The notes: generated by a model not told the origin, from the letters alone. Numbered from the stretch's first letter, positions 5,487 to 39,958 are shown. The stretch is 64,000 bases of DNA from Elusimicrobiaceae bacterium (GCA_017520185.1 JAFXGO010000026.1:14729-78728), one strand, 5' to 3'. Translations and numbers: made by a program.

Positions 5487-6701
5487 ATGAAAAAATTTTT
5501 GACTCAAAGTAAAGGATGGGCATTAGTTATTGCCACTTTTGTTGTTGTTTTCTCTTTTAGCACCGTAGATCATGCCATCTCTCCTTTGGTGGAATGGTTA
5601 AGTTTTTTCTTTCACACCGGTGCAGAAAGAACTTTGTGGCTTATTTCTTCCTGTACTGCAGGTATTGTGCTCGGTTTATTTTTAGGACCGCAACTTTTAA
5701 AAACCTTTCGCATTTCTCAAGTTCTTTGGGCCAGCTTGTTGATGATGGTGGGAGGAATATGGGCTTTTGTCAGCATTCCCTTTTTTCCTGTTTCTTTACT
5801 AATTCGTCTTGTTTTCGGATTGGGAGCAGGTTTATTTAGCACCGTTTTATGGTGGCTGACATATGAAGCGATAGACAAACGTTTTTACCTTCCTATGATT
5901 ATCGTTTTGACGGCCGCACGTCCAATGGCGGTGGCGGCAGGGGTTCCGTTGGTTTTGTACTCAAGTACTTTGCTTAATTGGCGGGTATCGTTTGCTATTA
6001 CAGGTGTTTTAATTGCTCTGTTTTGCACCGCTTTTATTTTTACCGCTCCCCCTGATAATAAAGAAAAATCAAAATTCACCCTTATGGCTTTGTTCAAAAC
6101 GTATCAAACGGCATGGAAAACACCTCATTTAAAAGATTTTTTTACCGCCATGTTGATTAACCGTTTGTGTTATTTTGGATTTTATTCCATGCTGGGATTA
6201 TGGTTTATCGGTCATTATCAACTTTCAACACCTCAATTAGCACGCCCTTTGATGGCCATCGGCCTCTGCGAAACCATCATCAATTTTGTGGTGCCTGTAT
6301 TGATGAAAATAGGACAAAAAAAATTATTTTATTTATCCCTTCTTTTTAATATTGTGTTTTTTGGTTTATTTGCATGGGGAGCCTTGCCGTTATGGGTCAC
6401 TATTTTGTTCATCGGATTGTTTGCTATGACAGATCGCATTTATGGCATGTTGCTGCTTATTTTTATCCCTTCTATTTTCAAAGACTCCAAAGACCGCACC
6501 ACCATCGGCAGTTTGGTGACTTTGGTTTCTTGGATGTCTTTGATGTTAATTTCATGGATAGAGGGAAGTTTTTTAGAAAGCATAGGACTAAAAAACATGG
6601 CGGTCCTTTTGTTAGTATTTTTGGCTATCAGCTTTGCGCTATATATCAAAATGCTACGTAAAACTATTTTTTCTTCGAACAGCATTTCCAACAACACATA
6701 A
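5487..6701 (+). CDS. MFS transporter (probable exporter)
   Basis: About 12 hydrophobic segments; ATG 1 nt after the methyltransferase stop. Confidence 0.85.
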   Translation: MKKFLTQSKGWALVIATFVVVFSFSTVDHAISPLVEWLSFFFHTGAERTLWLISSCTAGIVLGLFLGPQLLKTFRISQVLWASLLMMVGGIWAFVSIPFFPVSLLIRLVFGLGAGLFSTVLWWLTYEAIDKRFYLPMIIVLTAARPMAVAAGVPLVLYSSTLLNWRVSFAITGVLIALFCTAFIFTAPPDNKEKSKFTLMALFKTYQTAWKTPHLKDFFTAMLINRLCYFGFYSMLGLWFIGHYQLSTPQLARPLMAIGLCETIINFVVPVLMKIGQKKLFYLSLLFNIVFFGLFAWGALPLWVTILFIGLFAMTDRIYGMLLLIFIPSIFKDSKDRTTIGSLVTLVSWMSLMLISWIEGSFLESIGLKNMAVLLLVFLAISFALYIKMLRKTIFSSNSISNNT

Positions 6702-6737: not shown

Positions 6738-6774
6738 AAAAACGCCCTTTGAGCAAACTGCAAAGGGCGTTTTT
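6738..6774. terminator. Bidirectional intrinsic terminator after the MFS gene
   Basis: AAAAACGCCCTTTG-N9-CAAAGGGCGTTTTT perfect inverted repeat. Confidence 0.8.
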
Positions 6775-7075: not shown

Positions 7076-8092
7076 ATGTTTAAAAAAATTACAGCGCAAG
7101 ACTACGCCCCTATCAACAATGCCTGTCTGCTTATTCTGGCAGGTACTGCGCTTACTTGGATTTTGATTTATGCCAAAACGGTACTGATGCCTTTTGTGAT
7201 TGCCGTTTTCTTCTACATTGTACTTAACACTATTGCAGCATGGATACAAAAAAAATGGCAAATTCCTCATTTGCTGGGTGTTGTTTTAGGAGTATGTCTG
7301 TTCTTAGGAGTGGCAGGATTGTCTATTGCCTTTGTATCCAACTCCATCTCCTCCTTTGTGGACGGAGCCAATTCTTACGCAGGCAAATTAAATGACACCA
7401 TCTCTTGGTTCTTGTATAACGCAAGCAAACTTGGTGTTAAAATCAATTCCGAATTTATTTCTGACACCATCAACAAACTTCCTTTGCTGAATATGGCCAA
7501 AAGCATGGGAGGAGGCGTGATGTCCTTTGTCTCTAATACAATGTTGGTTTGTTTGTTCTTAATTTTCTTATTTATGGGCAGGTCCAATGATGAAAAAAAT
7601 TCTTTGGCTTCCTCCATCGAACAACAAATCTCCTATTATTTAATTATCAAAATTCTGGTTTCTTTATTAGCCGCCGCAGTCACGTGGGTTATTTTAACCA
7701 TCATTGGTACGGAGTTGGCGTTCATGTTTGCAGTGCTGACTTTTGTACTTAATTTTATCCCCAATATCGGGCCTTTTTTCGCCACCGCCTTACCGGCCCC
7801 TGTTTTATTTTTACAGTATGGAATAGATTGGCATTTGATCGTAGGAATCAGTTTGCTGATTGCGGCACATTTTGTGATTGGAAATATTCTGGAAACCAAA
7901 TGGCTGGGTAAAGGCATGGATTTAAATCCGGTCGTAGTAATTGCTTCCTTAATCTTTTGGGCCTTGGTTTGGGGGGCAGTGGGAGCACTGCTTGCCGTTC
8001 CTTTAACCTCTATTACCAAAATGATTTTGGAACGCAGCGAACCGACTAAACCCTTTGCCGATTTATTAGCCGGTCGTTTGCCGTTTAAATAA
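7076..8092 (+). CDS. AI-2E family transporter
   Basis: 338 aa membrane protein with LNFIPNIGP, GNILETKWLG, LLAVPLT motifs. Confidence 0.9.
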   Translation: MFKKITAQDYAPINNACLLILAGTALTWILIYAKTVLMPFVIAVFFYIVLNTIAAWIQKKWQIPHLLGVVLGVCLFLGVAGLSIAFVSNSISSFVDGANSYAGKLNDTISWFLYNASKLGVKINSEFISDTINKLPLLNMAKSMGGGVMSFVSNTMLVCLFLIFLFMGRSNDEKNSLASSIEQQISYYLIIKILVSLLAAAVTWVILTIIGTELAFMFAVLTFVLNFIPNIGPFFATALPAPVLFLQYGIDWHLIVGISLLIAAHFVIGNILETKWLGKGMDLNPVVVIASLIFWALVWGAVGALLAVPLTSITKMILERSEPTKPFADLLAGRLPFK

Positions 8093-8094
8093 CT

Positions 8095-9393
8095 ATGAAA
8101 AAATTGTCTCCCTGGTTTTTTATTCCTTCTCTTTATTTTTTAGAGGGATTACCTTACGTGCTTATAAACGTTGTATCGGGTGCGCTTTATACCAAGATGG
8201 GCATACCCAATGACGTCTTTGTTTTTTGGACCGGTTTTTTGTACCTTCCTTGGACTTTAAAAATGTTTTGGAGTCCTTTAATAGACGGCTATAGCACCAA
8301 ACGTCGTTGGCTTTTGTGGGGCCAATTTTTGGCGGCTGTCATTTTCTCTTTTGTAGCCTTTTCTTTGAGTTGGAATTGTTTTTTTACCGCTTCGTTATTA
8401 GGTTTTGCCGTAGGAGCCTTTGTTTCTGCCACGTGTGATATCGCTACCGACGGCTACTATATGCTTTCTCTTTCTGCTAATCAACAGGGATATTTCGTTG
8501 GCATTCGCACCATTTTTTACCGCTTGGCTATGATTTTTGGCGGTGGCACACTGCTGATGATTATCGGTTCTTGGGAAAAACAAACCGCTAATATTGTGCT
8601 TGCATGGAAATGGGGTTTGCTGTTAATAGCAGGCCTTTTTGTTGTATTGGGCTTATATCATGTATGGCTTTTGCCTCGTCCCGATTCTGACCGTCCGGCC
8701 ATGGCTTCTTCTCAAGGGAAAATGGCTTTTACAGAGGCATTCAAAACTTATTTTTCTCAAAAAAATATCGGATACATCCTTCTCTTTATTTTATTTTACC
8801 GATTAGGAGATGCTTTCCTGGAAAAAATTATCACCCCCTTTTTGATTGGCCCTGTAGACAGCGGTGCTTTGGGGTTGTCTACCGCGCAACTTGGTTTTAT
8901 TAAGGGCACGTTGGGTTTGGGTGCCATTATTGCAGGCAATTTGGCAGGAGGGTGGCTATTGGGAAAATACGGATTTAAAAAATGCATTTGGCCTTTTGCT
9001 TTCATCTTAATTTTGCCTAATTTCTTTTACGCTTATATGGCTTGGGCCAAACCCGGTATTGCTGTTATATCAGGATTAATTGCTTTGGAACATTTAGGCA
9101 ATGGGCTTGCCATGATGGCTTTTTCTATTTTTATTATGTACGTTTCTCAAGGGCCGTACAAAACTTCCCATTATGCTATTTCCACCGGCATTATGGCTTT
9201 GGGAATGATGCTTCCCTCTATGCTTTCAGGCAAAATGCAAGTAGCGCTGGGATATGAGGCTTTTTTTGCGCTTTGTGCTATTTTCAGTTTAATTACTCTG
9301 GCCATTGTACCGCTTACCTTTAAAATTAAATCCATCGAAGAAACTGAAAAACTTTTTCGAGAAAACAAAGCATCTATAGGAGAGATGGACTAA
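8095..9393 (+). CDS. ampG: AmpG-like muropeptide MFS transporter
   Basis: YFLEGLPY, PWTLKMFWSPLID, DIATDGYY motifs; context with murQ/anmK/nagZ. Confidence 0.85.
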   Translation: MKKLSPWFFIPSLYFLEGLPYVLINVVSGALYTKMGIPNDVFVFWTGFLYLPWTLKMFWSPLIDGYSTKRRWLLWGQFLAAVIFSFVAFSLSWNCFFTASLLGFAVGAFVSATCDIATDGYYMLSLSANQQGYFVGIRTIFYRLAMIFGGGTLLMIIGSWEKQTANIVLAWKWGLLLIAGLFVVLGLYHVWLLPRPDSDRPAMASSQGKMAFTEAFKTYFSQKNIGYILLFILFYRLGDAFLEKIITPFLIGPVDSGALGLSTAQLGFIKGTLGLGAIIAGNLAGGWLLGKYGFKKCIWPFAFILILPNFFYAYMAWAKPGIAVISGLIALEHLGNGLAMMAFSIFIMYVSQGPYKTSHYAISTGIMALGMMLPSMLSGKMQVALGYEAFFALCAIFSLITLAIVPLTFKIKSIEETEKLFRENKASIGEMD

Positions 9394-29727: not shown

Positions 29728-30837
29728 TTATATCCTCACCGGCATAATGACGTATTTTAATTCTTCATTTTCCACCGGTTCAATAAGTACCGGTTGAGAA
29801 GCATTAACAAAAGAGAAATTTACTTTCTCACTACCTACATTTTTTAGTACATCAATAATATATTGAGGATTAAAAGCGCAATCAAAAGCTTCTTGCGTAT
29901 ATTCAATAGGTAATTCGTCGGTAAATTCCATATTTTGAGATGTAGAAGAAATAGTCATAGTATTATTTTCTATATGAAATTTGACAGTTTTTCCAAACTC
30001 ACCCGAACATAAAGCCGCGCGACGAGTAGAAGCTAATAACTCTTTGGTAAAAACATCAAAAGATATGTTTTTCTTATTAGGAATTACTTGTTTGTAGTTT
30101 GGAAAATTCCCTTCAATCAAACGAGAAATAAAGGTAGTTTCATTCATTTGAAAACTAACTTGATTAGAAGCTACATTCACATGAATTTGAGTATCTTTAT
30201 CCGGTTTAGCTAAAGAGATAAAACGAACTACTTCATTTAAAATTTTAGTAGGAATAATAATTTTAAATTCACCGGAATCCGGTAAAGCAGCATGAGAAGC
30301 TACTGCCAAACGTCCACCATCGGTAGCAACTACTTCAAATTTTTCAGCGGTATTACTCCATAAAAGGCCGTTTAAAATATAACGAGTTTCCTGTGTAGAA
30401 GCAGAAAAGGCCGTTTTATCTATCATATTTTGTAATGCTAAAGGACTTAATACCATGCTGCCTGTTTTTTCAATTTCGGGAATGGCCGGATATTCTGATT
30501 TAGGAGTACCTATAACCCAAAATTTACTTTTACCAGATTTAATATGAAATTTATTATTTTCACCGGTATAGAGATTAATTTCTTTACCGTCAGGAAGATT
30601 TTTAATAATATCAGAAAAATCCTTCATCGGTACAGTTATACTTCCTTCTTCTTCAATCTCAGCAGAAATATAATGTACAGTGGCCATTTCCATATCAGTA
30701 CGAACTAATTTTAATTTGTTTTCCTGAGTTTCAATTAAAAAGTTATGCAAAATGGGCAACGTAGTACGGGAAGATGAACCCGTAGAAATAACCTGAATAC
30801 CTTCCAAAAGAGTTTCTTTAGTAATATTTATTTTCAT
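29728..30837 (-). CDS. dnaN: DNA polymerase III beta sliding clamp
   Basis: LPIL, TDME, RYILNG, ATDGGRL, RLIEGNFP, C-terminal VIMPVR. Confidence 0.96.
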   Translation of the reverse strand: MKINITKETLLEGIQVISTGSSSRTTLPILHNFLIETQENKLKLVRTDMEMATVHYISAEIEEEGSITVPMKDFSDIIKNLPDGKEINLYTGENNKFHIKSGKSKFWVIGTPKSEYPAIPEIEKTGSMVLSPLALQNMIDKTAFSASTQETRYILNGLLWSNTAEKFEVVATDGGRLAVASHAALPDSGEFKIIIPTKILNEVVRFISLAKPDKDTQIHVNVASNQVSFQMNETTFISRLIEGNFPNYKQVIPNKKNISFDVFTKELLASTRRAALCSGEFGKTVKFHIENNTMTISSTSQNMEFTDELPIEYTQEAFDCAFNPQYIIDVLKNVGSEKVNFSFVNASQPVLIEPVENEELKYVIMPVRI

Positions 30838-32397: not shown

Positions 32398-32429
32398 TTC
32401 GAGTTCCGCCTAAAAATAATATATATTAA

Positions 32430-32458
32430 ATCTTATCAATTATAAAATCCAACGTCAA
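32430..32458 (-). promoter_or_regulatory. Sigma70-type promoter of dnaA
   Basis: TTGACG-N17-TAAGAT with extended TG on the minus strand. Confidence 0.7.
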
Positions 32459-32600
32459 CTATAAAAAATACAGTTTTACGGTTTAAATCACAAAAAACCC
32501 CTAAAATTCTTGTTTTTTAAAAAAATGGCTATTTACCCCTTTAAAAATAATAAAAACTTTTAATTTTTTAATTTAAACGATAAAACGTAAAAAAATATAT

Positions 32601-32609
32601 TTATCCACA
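32601..32609 (+). promoter_or_regulatory. Perfect DnaA box upstream of dnaA
   Basis: TTATCCACA inside a very AT-rich intergenic region. Confidence 0.65.
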
Positions 32610-32742
32610 AGATATTATCAATTTTTTCTAATACTTTTTTGTTGCTTGTTTATTTTAAAAATAAAATTTATACTAAAAATCATATAAATATGATATAATT
32701 TAATAAGAAAAATTCTTATTAATAATAAAAAGGGGGAAGAAT

Positions 32743-35449: not shown

Positions 35450-36553
35450 ATGAAAATTCTCTATGTTTCCACTTCTACGGATATGGGTGGAGCCGAAACG
35501 TCTTTGCGTTCTTTGGCTCTAACCGCTAAAAATGCCGGACATACTGTTAAAATTATTTCTTTAAAACCGTTAGGATCCGTCGGAAAAGATATTATTTCTC
35601 AAGGGATAGAAGTTATTTCTTTGAATTTAAAATCTAAAGCCAATATGCTGGAAAATGCAGGAGTTTTTGCAAGACTTTTGCAGGAAATAGAAATTTTTAA
35701 TCCGGATATTGTGCATGCTCTTTTATTTAGAGCCATACAGTTTTGTCGTTCTGCAAAGAAAAAATTATCTTTTAAGTTAATAACTACCCCCCATTATGAT
35801 TTATCCAAAAAAAATTATTTTTTACGTCTGTGGGATCGTTCTTTAAAAGATATGGATGATATAAGTTGTGCAGAATCTCAGTCTACGGCTGATTTCTTAA
35901 CACATAAACAGAAATATAAAGAAGATAAAGTTTTTTTAATCCAAAATAGTGTGGATACACATTATTTTACCCCCAATGAAAGTTTGGGAAAAAAAACTCG
36001 TGAAAAATTGGGTTTTCATGCCAAAGATACGGTATTTATTTGTGTGGCGCGTTTGTCTGCAGAAAAAAATCATCAACTTTTGTTTGAAAGTTTTGCGTCC
36101 GTAAAGGCCAAAAATCCGAAAATTGGGTTGATAGTAGTAGGGGACGGCCCAGAAAACGCGAAATTGAAGGAATTTGCTTATCAACGAAATTTAGAAAACA
36201 ATATTTGTTTTGTAGGAGAAGTAAGTAATGTTTATCCTTATTTGTTAGCATCTGATGTTTTTATTCTTACTTCTTTCGTTGAAAGTCTACCTATTTCTTT
36301 ATTAGAGGCTTGTTCGTGTCAATTACCTGCTATTGTTAGTAAAGTGGGTGATATGCCTTTGGTTGTACAACATGGCAAAACCGGATTTGTTTTTAATGGC
36401 ACAGACCCTGTGCTTTTAAATGTATTAATGGCAGAAATATGTCAAAATGAAAATTTAAGAAAAGAAATGGGAATATCTGCCAGAAAAAGAATAAAGAAAA
36501 ACTATTCTTGTTCTGAAGAAAAATACATTCAATTATATGAAAAAATAAAATAG
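35450..36553 (+). CDS. Glycosyltransferase family 4
   Basis: GGAE, VARLSAEKN, VGDGP, E...LLEA, SKVGD (GT-B fold). Confidence 0.9.
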   Translation: MKILYVSTSTDMGGAETSLRSLALTAKNAGHTVKIISLKPLGSVGKDIISQGIEVISLNLKSKANMLENAGVFARLLQEIEIFNPDIVHALLFRAIQFCRSAKKKLSFKLITTPHYDLSKKNYFLRLWDRSLKDMDDISCAESQSTADFLTHKQKYKEDKVFLIQNSVDTHYFTPNESLGKKTREKLGFHAKDTVFICVARLSAEKNHQLLFESFASVKAKNPKIGLIVVGDGPENAKLKEFAYQRNLENNICFVGEVSNVYPYLLASDVFILTSFVESLPISLLEACSCQLPAIVSKVGDMPLVVQHGKTGFVFNGTDPVLLNVLMAEICQNENLRKEMGISARKRIKKNYSCSEEKYIQLYEKIK

Positions 36554-36570
36554 TTTTCACGTGAAAACTA
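36551..36570. other. parS-like palindrome 1
   Basis: TAGTTTTCACGTGAAAACTA, perfect 20-bp palindrome. Confidence 0.8.
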
Positions 36571-36579
36571 GGAGCTTTT

Positions 36580-37560
36580 ATGGAATCGAAACTTTTTGTT
36601 GTTGCTTGTATTATGTATATTTTTTCTTGGATTAGTAAAAAACTATTTAAGAAGAATAAAATTGCTGATGGAAAAAAATTTGGTTTTTGGCATGCAATTT
36701 TTTTGTTGTTGATTTTGTCTTGTGCTTATAATATTATTAATTTTGTCATAAATAGTGGAGTAGAAAATCCTTTTTTGGATAAAGGATTTTCTTTGAAAAA
36801 AATAGTTATTCCTTTTATTATTCTTTTTATTTCCATATATGGCTTTTTTTCTGCTAAGAATAAAAAAGGAGAATCAAAAAATATTTTAATAAAAAGTGAT
36901 TTGGAGTGGGCAAATACGGTCTATTTCGCTGGATTTGTTGCCTCTATTGTTATGTTTTTCTTTGTGCAGGCTTTTAAGATTCCGTCTGCATCTATGCAAA
37001 ACACCTTGTTAATAGGAGACCATTTGTTTGTTAATAAAGCCGCTTATGGTTTTAGAATTCCGCTGACTCAAATTAGATTCTTAGAATTTAATGAGATAAA
37101 AAAAGGAGATATTATTGTTTTTTCTTTTCCGGCAGAAAGTAAGGAACAAATTAATTGTGGTGGTTATCAATATGGAAAAGACTATGTTAAAAGAGTAATT
37201 GCTTTAGGCGGAGATAAAGTTGAAGTAAAAAATGCCAAACTTTATGTTAATGATCAAGAGGTAGAAAAACAAGGGTATGAAATTTATGAACCGGTTTCTC
37301 GTTTGCAGGCAGAACATAAATTAGATGGAACAACCTATCAATTATTATGGGAAAATAGAATTTTGGAACATGAGTTAGGAATGTCATTAAGAGATAATTT
37401 TGGCCCTGTTATTGTTCCGGAAGGGCAATATTTTGCTATGGGAGATAATAGAGATAATTCTTGTGATTCCCGTTTTTGGGGGCCTGTTCCTAGAAAAAAT
37501 ATCAAGGGGACTGTTTGGTTTATCCACTGGCCGATAAGCAGAATAGGTATTGTAAAATAA
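36580..37560 (+). CDS. lepB: Signal peptidase I with extra N-terminal TM segments
   Basis: PSASM catalytic Ser, IGDHLFVNK, DYVKRV catalytic Lys, GDNRDNSCDSRFWG. Confidence 0.93.
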   Translation: MESKLFVVACIMYIFSWISKKLFKKNKIADGKKFGFWHAIFLLLILSCAYNIINFVINSGVENPFLDKGFSLKKIVIPFIILFISIYGFFSAKNKKGESKNILIKSDLEWANTVYFAGFVASIVMFFFVQAFKIPSASMQNTLLIGDHLFVNKAAYGFRIPLTQIRFLEFNEIKKGDIIVFSFPAESKEQINCGGYQYGKDYVKRVIALGGDKVEVKNAKLYVNDQEVEKQGYEIYEPVSRLQAEHKLDGTTYQLLWENRILEHELGMSLRDNFGPVIVPEGQYFAMGDNRDNSCDSRFWGPVPRKNIKGTVWFIHWPISRIGIVK

Positions 37561-37585
37561 TAAATTGTATAGGAAAACTTTTATT

Positions 37586-37628
37586 TGTGGATAATTTATC
37601 CACACAAATTAACAGGTTTTGTGAAAAA
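37586..37628. promoter_or_regulatory. DnaA-box cluster upstream of parA
   Basis: TGTGGATAA-T-TTATCCACA inverted pair (37586-37604) plus TGTGAAAAA (37620-37628). Confidence 0.7.
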
Positions 37629-37641
37629 CAAAACCTGTTTT

Positions 37642-37657
37642 GTTTTCACGTGAAAAC
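37642..37657. other. parS-like palindrome 2
   Basis: GTTTTCACGTGAAAAC, perfect 16-bp palindrome about 50 nt before parA. Confidence 0.8.
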
Positions 37658-37708
37658 TGACTTGCTTTTTGTTCCCTTTATATGATTTAATATGTTTATG
37701 GAGGATTT

Positions 37709-38542
37709 ATGGGAGAGATAATTGCTATTGCAAATCAAAAAGGTGGTGTTGGTAAAACAACCACTTCTATTAATTTGGCGTATGCCCTAGCACATTTAGA
37801 TCAAGAAGTTTTGTTGATTGATTTTGACCCTCAAGGAAATGCCGGTTCAGGATTAGGTATTACTGTGGAAGAAGGAGAAAAATCGGTCTATCACTTATTG
37901 ACAAAAAATGCTACTTTTGAAGAAGTTATTAGACAAACTTCTAATGAAATGTTAGATGTTATCCCCACATGCAAACATTTAGCCGGTGCAGAAGTTGAAC
38001 TGGTTAATGTGCGTGGTCGTGAGAATATGCTTAAAGAAGCCTTGTCTCCTTTGCGCAAAATGTATAAATACATTATTATAGATTGTCCTCCTTCTTTGGG
38101 TCTTCTTACCTTAAATGCTCTAATGGCGGCAGACAGTGTAATTACTCCGGTACAATGTGAATTTTATGCTATGGAAGGATTGGCTCATTTTATGGGAACT
38201 ATCCAAAAAATTAGACAATTCTTAAATAGCAACTTAAAATTAGATGGCGGTGTATTAACAATGTACGATAATCGTATGAATCTATCTCGCCAAGTATTTG
38301 CAGAAGTCAGTCGTTTCTTTGGGGAAAAAATTTATAAAACTCCGATTCCCCGTAATATCCGCTTAGCCGAAGCTCCCAGCTTTGGGCAATCTATTTTTGA
38401 TTATGAGCCTGCCTGTCGCGGTGCGAATGCTTATATTCAGTTAGCTATTGAATTTATGGCCAGACGCGGTGCTGATATGGAAGAATATGCAGGCTATAAT
38501 ATGCAAAACGCAGAAACTTATAACTATGATTTTGGAGGATAA
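37709..38542 (+). CDS. parA: Chromosome partitioning ATPase ParA/Soj
   Basis: NQKGGVGKTT deviant Walker A, DPQGNA, DCPPSLG, IPRNIRLAEAPSFG. Confidence 0.96.
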   Translation: MGEIIAIANQKGGVGKTTTSINLAYALAHLDQEVLLIDFDPQGNAGSGLGITVEEGEKSVYHLLTKNATFEEVIRQTSNEMLDVIPTCKHLAGAEVELVNVRGRENMLKEALSPLRKMYKYIIIDCPPSLGLLTLNALMAADSVITPVQCEFYAMEGLAHFMGTIQKIRQFLNSNLKLDGGVLTMYDNRMNLSRQVFAEVSRFFGEKIYKTPIPRNIRLAEAPSFGQSIFDYEPACRGANAYIQLAIEFMARRGADMEEYAGYNMQNAETYNYDFGG

Positions 38543-38546
38543 TTAA

Positions 38547-39437
38547 ATGTCAAGACAAGCATTAGGAAAAGGCCTCGATGCCTTGCTTAAACAAACACAG
38601 GAAGTTTTAAATAATCCTACGGCTGTTCGTCCGGAAAATCCGTCCGGTCCCTCTGTACAAAAAATATCTTTAGAGAAAATTATCCCCAACCGCTATCAAC
38701 CGCGTCGTATTTTTGATGAAAGCAAACTGCAAGAATTGGCCCAATCTATACAAGAACATGGCCTTACTCAACCTATTGTTGTAGTTTACGATGTTGGATT
38801 GGATAAATATGAAATTGTAGTGGGTGAGCGCCGTTTCCGCGCCAGTCAGTTGGCCGGACTTACGGAAATAGATGCTATTGTGCATAAGGCTTTGACAGAT
38901 AAAGAGATGTGTGCTTTGGCTTTGATTGAAAATATTCAGCGCGAAGATTTAAACCCGATAGAAACGGCTTTGGGATATAGAAATTTAATGAGTAAATTTG
39001 AAATTTCTCAAACAGATTTAGCCGGATATTGTGGCAAATCTAAAGCAGCTGTTTCAAACTCATTGCGTTTGTTGGAACTTCCCGAACATATGCAAGAGGC
39101 TTTGCAAGACGGTACTATTTCTGAAGGGCATGGACGGGCTTTATTGATGTTATTGGATCCTATTAAAAAAGAATCTCTTTTTCAAAGATTGAAAAAAAAT
39201 AAAATGTCTGTCCGACAAGCAGAAGAAGCCGCCAGAGCATTATTGCAGCCGTCACCTATTAAGTTGCCAAAACCGCCTGAGGTTGCTTCTTTTGAAAATG
39301 ACTTACAAGCCTCTTTGGGAACAAAAGTAGAAGTGCGTTATGGTAAAAAAATGTCAAAAGGTGTTTTGATTATCCAATATAATTCTTTGGAAGAATTGGA
39401 TAATATTGCTAATCGTTTGAAAACAAAATTATTATAA
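38547..39437 (+). CDS. parB: Chromosome partitioning CTPase ParB
   Basis: PNRYQPR, GERRFRA, ENIQREDLNP, HTH domain. Confidence 0.96.
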   Translation: MSRQALGKGLDALLKQTQEVLNNPTAVRPENPSGPSVQKISLEKIIPNRYQPRRIFDESKLQELAQSIQEHGLTQPIVVVYDVGLDKYEIVVGERRFRASQLAGLTEIDAIVHKALTDKEMCALALIENIQREDLNPIETALGYRNLMSKFEISQTDLAGYCGKSKAAVSNSLRLLELPEHMQEALQDGTISEGHGRALLMLLDPIKKESLFQRLKKNKMSVRQAEEAARALLQPSPIKLPKPPEVASFENDLQASLGTKVEVRYGKKMSKGVLIIQYNSLEELDNIANRLKTKLL

Positions 39438-39456
39438 GTTTATTTCAAACAAAATT

Positions 39457-39487
39457 ACCCGAGTTCTTTAAAAAGACTCGGGTTTTT
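39457..39487 (+). terminator. Terminator after parB
   Basis: ACCCGAGT-N11-ACTCGGGT followed by TTTT. Confidence 0.7.
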
Positions 39488-39532
39488 GTTTATTGATTGA
39501 AAAAAAGAAAAGGTATAAAGAAAAATTAAAAA

Positions 39533-39548
39533 GTTTTCATGTGAAAAC
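39533..39548. other. parS-like palindrome 3 (one mismatch)
   Basis: GTTTTCATGTGAAAAC. Confidence 0.72.
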
Positions 39549-39958
39549 TATGTTTGTTTTGACAAAAACAGCCCAAAACTCGTGTTCGCAAGCAAAACAA
39601 CTTCTATTTTCGATTTTCTTCTTTTTTGCTTACATTTGTATTGTTTTTATAAAAAAACACAAAATAGGAGTATTTTTGTAAAAAATGAATTTTTGTCGAC
39701 GGAACAAAATATAAAATAAAAAAACATACTCTTAAAAAAGGAATTTTTGGAACATAAGTTAGGAAAACTAATTTTCAAATATGAAACTTTATTTTTTAAA
39801 ATTATGAAATAAAAAATTAAAATAGAATTTTTGCTATAAAAAAACGTGAATTATTCGTATGGATTTACTACAATGTTATGAGAGAAACAACTTCTCTTTG
39901 ATGTAGAATTTTTATAATATAGTTGTATATTTACTGCTTGGTAAAAGATAGAGAGTTT

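Follow-up and report, generated by a model that had tools for sequence, protein, structure and literature searches.

Long-armed predicted parS sites in Elusimicrobiota occur with either arginine or lysine at ParB residue 173

We analysed a 64 kb stretch of DNA (the window) from a gut Elusimicrobiaceae metagenome-assembled genome (MAG), in which an adjacent parA-parB pair is surrounded by three palindromes that are very probably, as predicted from their sequence and setting, its chromosome-partition (parS) sites. These sites are best described as TGTTTTCACGTGAAAACA, an 18-bp palindrome with an extra T in each arm. The long-arm site is a trait of the Elusimicrobiota lineage and is found both with ParBs that carry arginine at residue 173 (R173, Caulobacter numbering) and with ParBs that, like the one in the window, carry lysine (K173). 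ParB-parS is treated as among the most conserved of bacterial protein-DNA pairs, and R173 is described as invariant. Comparison of relatives makes it probable that the palindromes are origin-proximal parS sites of a lineage-wide long-arm form that arose independently of the arginine-to-lysine change (R173K). This is apparently an undescribed arm-length variant of a known system: the literature searched contained no mention of GTTTTCACGTGAAAAC or TTTTCACGTGAAAA, nor relevant parS work on Elusimicrobia, which is no proof of novelty.

The palindrome GTTTTCACGTGAAAAC occurs exactly at 36553-36568 and 37642-37657, and a third copy at 39533-39548, GTTTTCATGTGAAAAC, differs by one central C-to-T change. 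A sequence-only reading of the window had reported three identical copies; all three are where it placed them, but only two are exact. Three matches at two or fewer mismatches compare with 0.04 expected by chance, and none of 100 shuffles reached three. Canonical parS (TGTTTCACGTGAAACA) has no match at two or fewer mismatches anywhere in the 64 kb, and its sole 3-mismatch match is unrelated and at chance level. The parS consensus TGTTNCACGTGAAACA likewise gave no match within two mismatches in the window and none within one mismatch in 25 Elusimicrobiaceae loci. The earlier expectation that standard searches would score these sites poorly was thus borne out: a search with the 16-mer at up to two mismatches misses them. 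Three isolated GTTTTCAC half-sites lie elsewhere in the window, as many as chance predicts, and half-site enrichment was rejected on that count. All three palindromes are intergenic and lie around lepB-parA-parB (Table 1).

The same sites recur at the same places in close relatives. Annotation assigns the closest ParBs to Elusimicrobiaceae gut MAGs. From a scan of GTDB species representatives we took 25 Elusimicrobiaceae/Elusimicrobiales loci with 74-94% ParB identity and searched ~20 kb per locus. Every one of these gut-clade loci encodes K173, 24 of the 25 carry 18-bp-type sites, and canonical sites were found in none; the exception, L015, has just ~0.8 kb of DNA upstream of parB. The 83 full sites are all confined to the interval from -2.2 to +1.2 kb relative to the parB start, with none elsewhere in the ~20-kb loci, and they form three clusters at ~-2.1 kb, ~-1 kb and ~+0.9 kb. 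Equivalents of the first palindrome (parS-1) in these loci lie ~2.0-2.2 kb upstream of parB. In an alignment of the DNA upstream of parA from 17 relatives, conservation stands out in the palindrome, a TTGC -35 element, a TGnTTTAAT extended -10 element and a GGAGG ribosome-binding site, while the remainder has diverged. Because they are positionally clustered and conserved amid diverged DNA, we conclude that the sites are under selection and tied to parAB.

When the centre of the palindrome is held fixed, the position of the canonical outer G holds a T. The sequence-only reading had described this as G1 becoming T, which is accurate in that register but overlooks a G that persists one base further out. 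At this position (-8), G is present in 171 of 182 half-sites (94%) from K173 gut genomes, in 14 of 16 from K173 environmental relatives and in 19 of 22 from R173 environmental relatives. Because the G is displaced and yet conserved at 94%, we read the site as canonical parS with one T added per arm, not as a base substitution. The Elusimicrobiota form is an 18-bp palindrome with arms (T/A)GTTTTCAC and GTGAAAAC(A/T), compared with the 16-bp canonical arms TGTTTCAC and GTGAAACA. The outer conserved G is thus 1 bp further from the dyad than in canonical parS, and the inner 12 bp, with the core TTTCACGTGAAA, are identical.

The lysine stands where other ParBs have their base-reading arginine. The protein reads GKSKAAVSNSLRLLELPEHMQEALQDGTISEGHGR, which HMMER aligns without gaps to GKSRPHIANHLRLLTLP of B. 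subtilis Spo0J and GKGQSTIANKLRLLKLP of Noc, and the lysine faces the R of Spo0J GKSR and the Q of Noc GKGQ. These alignments confirm the earlier placement of the lysine at R173. The recognition region was also found in the open reading frame (ORF) as claimed, as was the residue code K-S-E-G with R204 kept, and the Caulobacter facts that it drew on agree with the published structure. In that work (Jalal et al. 2020, PMC7383237), whose numbering includes G170, K171, S172, R173, N178, G201 and R204, R173 hydrogen-bonds G1 and is reported to be invariant in ParB orthologues, and the strong parS-specific variants recovered by selection all keep R at 173. K173 is a genuine exception to this reported invariance. 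At residue 173, 138 of the 149 best-scoring alignable 50%-identity representatives have R, 7 have K, 2 have Q, and V and A occur once each. Among the matches listed, all 120 ParB clusters with 72-100% identity to the window protein have K173, and a profile search of environmental Elusimicrobiota ParBs gave 101 R173 and 15 K173 clusters among 116 newly listed.

We then asked which sites accompany each residue in the DNA around ten environmental relatives. Three K173 loci (L135, L136 and L144) each have two (A/T)GTTTTCACGTGAAAAC sites upstream of parA. Two R173 loci (L137 and L139) have, in the same place as their K173 relatives, three (T/A)GTTTTCACGTGAAAACA sites each, all of the 18-bp type, and the gene neighbourhood is similar across L135-L139. 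A further R173 locus, L145, has a single site, TGTTTTCATGTGAAAACA, again of the 18-bp type only. The R173 locus L138 combines one full 18-bp site with three hybrids of the two arm lengths, such as TGTTTCAC-GTGAAAACA, and the K173 locus L140 has the hybrid cTGTTTCAC-GTGAAAACc. The R173 sisters of L140 (L141 and L142) carry canonical TGTTCCACGTGGAACA. No site was found on the 1.5-kb contigs of P0121 and P0123, the latter being the nearest to the gut clade among R173 relatives. Outside the phylum, we used a broad metagenome sample of 35-44%-identical ParBs as background; among the matches listed, 33 of 34 R173 loci with sites have canonical sites only, one (L089) has a hybrid, and 18-bp sites alone occur in none of the 34.

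The long-arm site is therefore not set by the unusual lysine, because R173 relatives carry the same sites. The sequence-only reading had held that the change fell on the very residue that contacts the altered base; L137, L139 and L145, with L138 mixed, do not support this. The one-to-one covariation of motif and residue that it predicted fails on the same R173 long-arm loci, even though K173 with purely canonical sites was never seen. The recognition helices of environmental R173 and K173 ParBs are otherwise near-identical (GKSRAAVSNTLRLLEL versus GKSKAAVSNTLRLLEL). Neighbour-joining (NJ) trees, plain and crude and without support values, mix the two states: P0334 (R) falls inside a K group, P0123 (R) beside the gut K clade, and P0128 (K) beside P0129 (R). 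P0175 is a K173 ParB of a different lineage. These trees imply that R and K probably interchanged several times once the long-arm site was already in place.

Several observations weigh against complete independence of site and residue. Four R173 loci have 18-bp sites, with L137-L139 among them closely related to one another. Among the 29 K173 loci with full sites, all are long-armed, 28 with 18-bp sites only and L140 with its hybrid, and none is purely canonical. Base -9 is T in 19 of 22 R173 half-sites, where it recreates the canonical TG, whereas K173 gut genomes have A in 81 and T in 84 of 182. Finally, R173 is invariable among strong canonical binders, and K173 is therefore not neutral toward canonical parS. 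Some K-specific tuning is thus conceivable. These same points, together with the alignment of K173 to R173 and the reported invariance of the R173-G1 contact (PMC7383237), could be taken further, to a K173 that is a co-evolved specificity determinant, with loss of the G and R173K together creating a new class defined by residue 173. Elsewhere the outer base does vary together with this residue, as in a Q173 ParB with TATTTCACGTGAAATA (L126) and an I173 ParB with A/T-only outer bases (L030). We nevertheless consider such a class unlikely: the four R173 Elusimicrobiota loci bear the same GTTTTCACGTGAAAAC sites upstream of parA as their K173 relatives, the outer G is displaced and not lost, hybrid sites occur with R173 (L138) as well as K173 (L140), and serine at residue 177, described below, follows site type better than residue 173 does.

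The opposite possibility is that ParB reads essentially the inner TTTCACGTGAAA alone, the extra T and R173K being drift, partly through AT mutational bias, with specificity unchanged. The canonical inner 12 bp would fit, as would proteins that accept both arm lengths (L138 and L140, and L089 outside the phylum). Residue 173 is also unusually labile (K, R, and V in an Armatimonadota lineage), and GC is generally lower in environmental K173 loci (0.49-0.50) than in the R173 loci related to them (0.60-0.62). Drift, on the other hand, would predict scatter, whereas in most sites both arms are fixed in the long form, and the outer position is still selected because G(-8) is 86-94% conserved in every group. 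The GC trend is broken by L145 (R173, GC 0.37) and L140 (K173, GC 0.61), and a change from CGC to AAG requires three nucleotide changes. We regard this explanation as improbable to much the same degree. Base composition as the sole cause of the R-to-K change was rejected outright, since these two loci run counter to the trend and up to three codon positions separate the two residues. We give very little credence to the palindromes being operators of another CACGTG-binding regulator or transcriptional elements of lepB-parAB. All three are indeed intergenic, one adjoining a promoter, one overlapping a ribosome-binding region and one beyond a terminator. Against this, the association with parAB holds across the phylum despite differing neighbours (lepB in the gut clade, DUF2089 genes in environmental clades), the sites are near-identical to parS except for one T per arm, a complete ParA/ParB beside oriC would have no other parS in the region, and several tandem copies upstream of parA are the typical arrangement of a parS cluster.

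We therefore favour origin-proximal parS sites of a lineage-wide long-arm form, for which we propose the following sequence of events by analogy with known systems. ParB dimers would nucleate on the 18-bp sites through the helix-turn-helix (HTH) domain, close as cytidine triphosphate (CTP)-dependent clamps and spread over the ~3-kb lepB-parAB region, and ParA would segregate the resulting ParB-DNA complex. With parS-2 adjoining the -35 element, parAB would probably be autoregulated. The long arm would have arisen independently of R173K, and probably before it, since orthologues with either residue are paired with one and the same site. R173K would then be a conservative replacement that recurs in the lineage and is seen just on the long-arm background. 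K173 most likely still contacts the displaced G, given that G(-8) is 94% conserved and that lysine is generally able to hydrogen-bond guanine; it might be tolerated just where the canonical R173-G1 geometry no longer applies.

Two other residues follow the long-arm site more closely than residue 173 does and are candidates only, the counts being phylogenetically non-independent. S177, in the recognition helix beside the base-contacting N178, is present in 34 of 34 long-arm loci, including the V173 locus L055, compared with 3 of 36 canonical loci; E200, beside G201, is present in 34 of 34 compared with 5 of 36. Within the phylum, L141 and L142 combine A177 and R173 with canonical sites, and their sister L140 combines S177 and K173 with long arms. 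In the 50%-identity set, all 7 K173 representatives and the single V173 and A173 representatives have S177, compared with 27 of 138 with R173. Residue 177 is absent from the listed DNA contacts of the Caulobacter ParB structure (PMC7383237). It is possible, though we hold the idea only tentatively, that Elusimicrobiota and perhaps the V173 Armatimonadota lineage represent an 18-bp geometry class read by S177 (and E200) ParBs, in which R173 is replaceable (by K or V) and which is at least partly orthogonal to canonical pairs.

Other departures at residue 173 were seen further afield. The metagenomic L126 ParB has Q173 with G201 (GKSQ...GHAR), and its TATTTCACGTGAAATA lies at 6339-6356 inside its own parB; an outer A on a parS core is what the rule of Jalal et al. 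that Q173 reads adenine 1 predicts, and L126 looks like a natural intermediate between parS and the Noc-binding site (NBS). L055, from an Armatimonadota ParB cluster with 289 members, has V173, S177 and E200, and a long-arm GGTTTTCACATGAAAACA at 6749-6766 adjoins the parB stop codon; with one site seen, an independent origin of the long-arm site plus R173 loss is possible. L030, a Clostridiaceae MAG (GC 0.26), encodes an I173 ParB (GKNI) and has TATTTCACGTGAAAAAT- and ATTTTCACGTGAAAAAT-type palindromes without an outer G near parB (7887-7904 and 8388-8405). Within the gut clade, the DNA-contact residue R204 has become K (GHGK) in the subclade of L002, L003, L005, L007, L008, L010, L011, L013, L021 and L025. 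C at -4 (GTTTCCAC) occurs in 35 of 83 half-sites of these R204K genomes compared with 1 of 88 in R204 genomes, and GC content does not account for it. This may be a real protein-DNA covariation, probably a single phylogenetic event.

By architecture and context the system belongs to chromosomal ParABS. We base this on the ParA and ParB domains, the proximity to dnaA and to a turn in GC skew, the above-chance sites and the lack of canonical parS in the 64 kb. ParB scores 109.5, 112.2 and 49.9 bits against the Pfam families ParB_N, HTH_ParB and ParB_C, carries VGERRFRAS, reaches 171.5 bits against TIGR00180 (cut-off 58.45) and is alignable to structures of Spo0J, ParB and Noc. ParA matches AAA_31 (223 bits), CbiA and MipZ, and reached no NCBIfam equivalog cut-off; its gene lies directly upstream of parB. 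The features of chromosomal systems that are present include the GERRxRA N-domain, the HTH and dimerisation domains, the adjacent ParA and the clustered ori-proximal palindromes; those lacking are a 16-mer parS within two mismatches and R173. With the canonical systems of B. subtilis (Spo0J/Soj) and Caulobacter (PMC7383237) it thus shares a three-domain ParB with GERRxRA, an adjacent Walker-type ParA, clustered palindromes near ori with the TTTCACGTGAAA core, and the contact residues Q162, G170, K171, S172, N178, G201 and R204. It differs in having an 18-bp and not a 16-bp palindrome, a G 1 bp further out, K for R173, and sites that are all intergenic.

Noc, a firmicute ParB paralogue, is the best-scoring PDB and NCBIfam match and offers a precedent for residue 173 and the outer base changing together, its switch being R173Q and G201R with permissive K179/K184. 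We rejected a Noc identity on residues, family cut-off, missing NBS sites and gene context. The code at 173/179/184/201 is K-S-E-G and not Q-K-K-R, with G201 kept; the TIGR04285 score is 233.7 bits, below the cut-off of 315; the sole match to NBS (TATTTCCCGGGAAATA) in the window has three mismatches and is at chance level; and the gene is paired with parA at ori. Noc changes base identity, whereas here arm length changes and a residue change is not required. Pseudomonas aeruginosa ParB binds half-parS heptamers, that is, single arms (PMC10419367; PMC5961200). Those half-sites are isolated, canonical and scattered over the genome, in contrast to the full long-armed palindromes that are the sole sites near ori here, where half-sites are at chance. 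Single-arm binding, together with the natural hybrids, suggests that arm geometry is tolerated and makes strict orthogonality less likely. The Bsr systems of Burkholderiales (PMC5450999) also have lineage- or replicon-specific parS variants with related ParBs. They separate replicons in one cell by base identity, whereas the present change is at the level of a phylum in a single chromosomal system.

These comparisons give the variant an interest that is independent of the earlier K173 mechanism, for which the comparison of relatives gives no support. A phylum-wide 18-bp parS would escape consensus searches, so that annotation and ori/centromere prediction wrongly give 'no parS'. Near-identical helices with R or K on the same site, together with the hybrids, make a natural experiment for weighing arm spacing against the R173-G contact. 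The arm-length variant and the naturally occurring R/K polymorphism at a contact residue called 'invariant' together form an exception that is useful and can be tested. Should the pair prove orthogonal to canonical ParB/parS, it would be a new module for ParB/parS DNA-labelling systems, which are built from orthogonal pairs (PMC11109969, PMC11798528).

The setting of lepB-parAB is what a chromosomal parABS would be expected to have. The cumulative GC-skew minimum lies at ~30-32 kb of the window, and from this and the dnaA cluster oriC is likely within or beside the intergenic region 32398-32742, which has a DnaA box at 32601. With dnaA, dnaN, gyrB and gyrA nearby and the skew turning there, the parAB locus is placed 4-7 kb from the probable origin. 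Two perfect convergent DnaA boxes, TGTGGATAA and TTATCCACA, 1 base apart, lie at 37586-37604, shortly before the lepB terminator, parS-2 and the parA promoter. TTATCCACA is kept at the equivalent place in several relatives in the upstream-region alignment. The window holds five perfect DnaA boxes, all between 29.2 and 37.6 kb. The pair suggests a DnaA input to parAB expression or an origin-linked element.

Table 1 Coordinates of the predicted parS sites and associated features in the 64 kb window.
Feature	Position	Strand	Description
dnaA	31009-32397	-	From ORF translations; then dnaN (29728-30837), gyrB, gyrA
parS-1 (predicted)	36551-36570	.	TAGTTTTCACGTGAAAACTA; 20-bp perfect palindrome, core GTTTTCACGTGAAAAC
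lepB	36580-37560		Between parS-1 and parS-2
parS-2 (predicted)	37641-37658	.	TGTTTTCACGTGAAAACT; flanked by the lepB terminator hairpin on one side and the -35 of the inferred promoter on the other
Inferred parAB promoter	37661-37693	+	-35 TTGCTT, extended -10 TGATTTAAT; directly downstream of parS-2; basis is conservation
parA	37709-38542	+	277 amino acids; deviant Walker A NQKGGVGKTT; C-terminal extension ends YNYDFGG
parB	38547-39437	+	296 amino acids; ParB_N with GERRFRA, HTH_ParB, ParB_C; recognition region GKSKAAVSNSLRLLEL...SEGHGR
Lys166 codon (AAA)	39042-39044	+	Equals the R173 position of Caulobacter ParB
parS-3 (predicted)	39532-39549	.	AGTTTTCATGTGAAAACT; centre CATGTG, not CACGTG; ~95 bp 3' of parB, past a terminator-like hairpin

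The individual sites differ in their surroundings. The first shares bases with the stop codon of a GT4 glycosyltransferase gene and extends as far as the lepB ribosome-binding site. At the inferred parAB promoter beside the second, a promoter consensus scan returned just a weaker overlapping match. The CATGTG variant of parS-3 stands at the same place in 12 relatives (L001, L002, L004, L006-L009, L011-L014 and L018). The same central CpG-to-TpG change was seen in L145 and L055, and it turns up again in lineages unrelated to one another and in the canonical sites of L045 and L084. The CATGTG site may be a deliberately kept weaker site or merely a common deamination variant. Between parS-3 and the atp operon lies an AT-rich stretch of ~370 bp (39550-39920) with no ORF of at least 60 amino acids except a 62-amino-acid ORF with a TTG start (39493-39681) and no Rfam match; the Rfam search gave no match near the parAB locus as a whole.

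The sequence-only reading had also pointed to an aromatic and acidic C-terminal tail on ParA, which is indeed present and ~25 amino acids long. In the gut-clade loci L001-L025 and in L135-L139 and L143, the tail (window 38464-38539) consists of a variable linker of ~20 amino acids followed by a conserved terminal motif. This motif is [NS]YDFGG in all 26 gut-clade loci and Y[NS]YDFGG in most of them. Environmental Elusimicrobiales have EYD[LM]GG or DYDFGG, L143 has DFDFGG, and the motif is absent from L140-L142 and from the Armatimonadota locus. A constant end on a variable linker looks like a short linear interaction motif.

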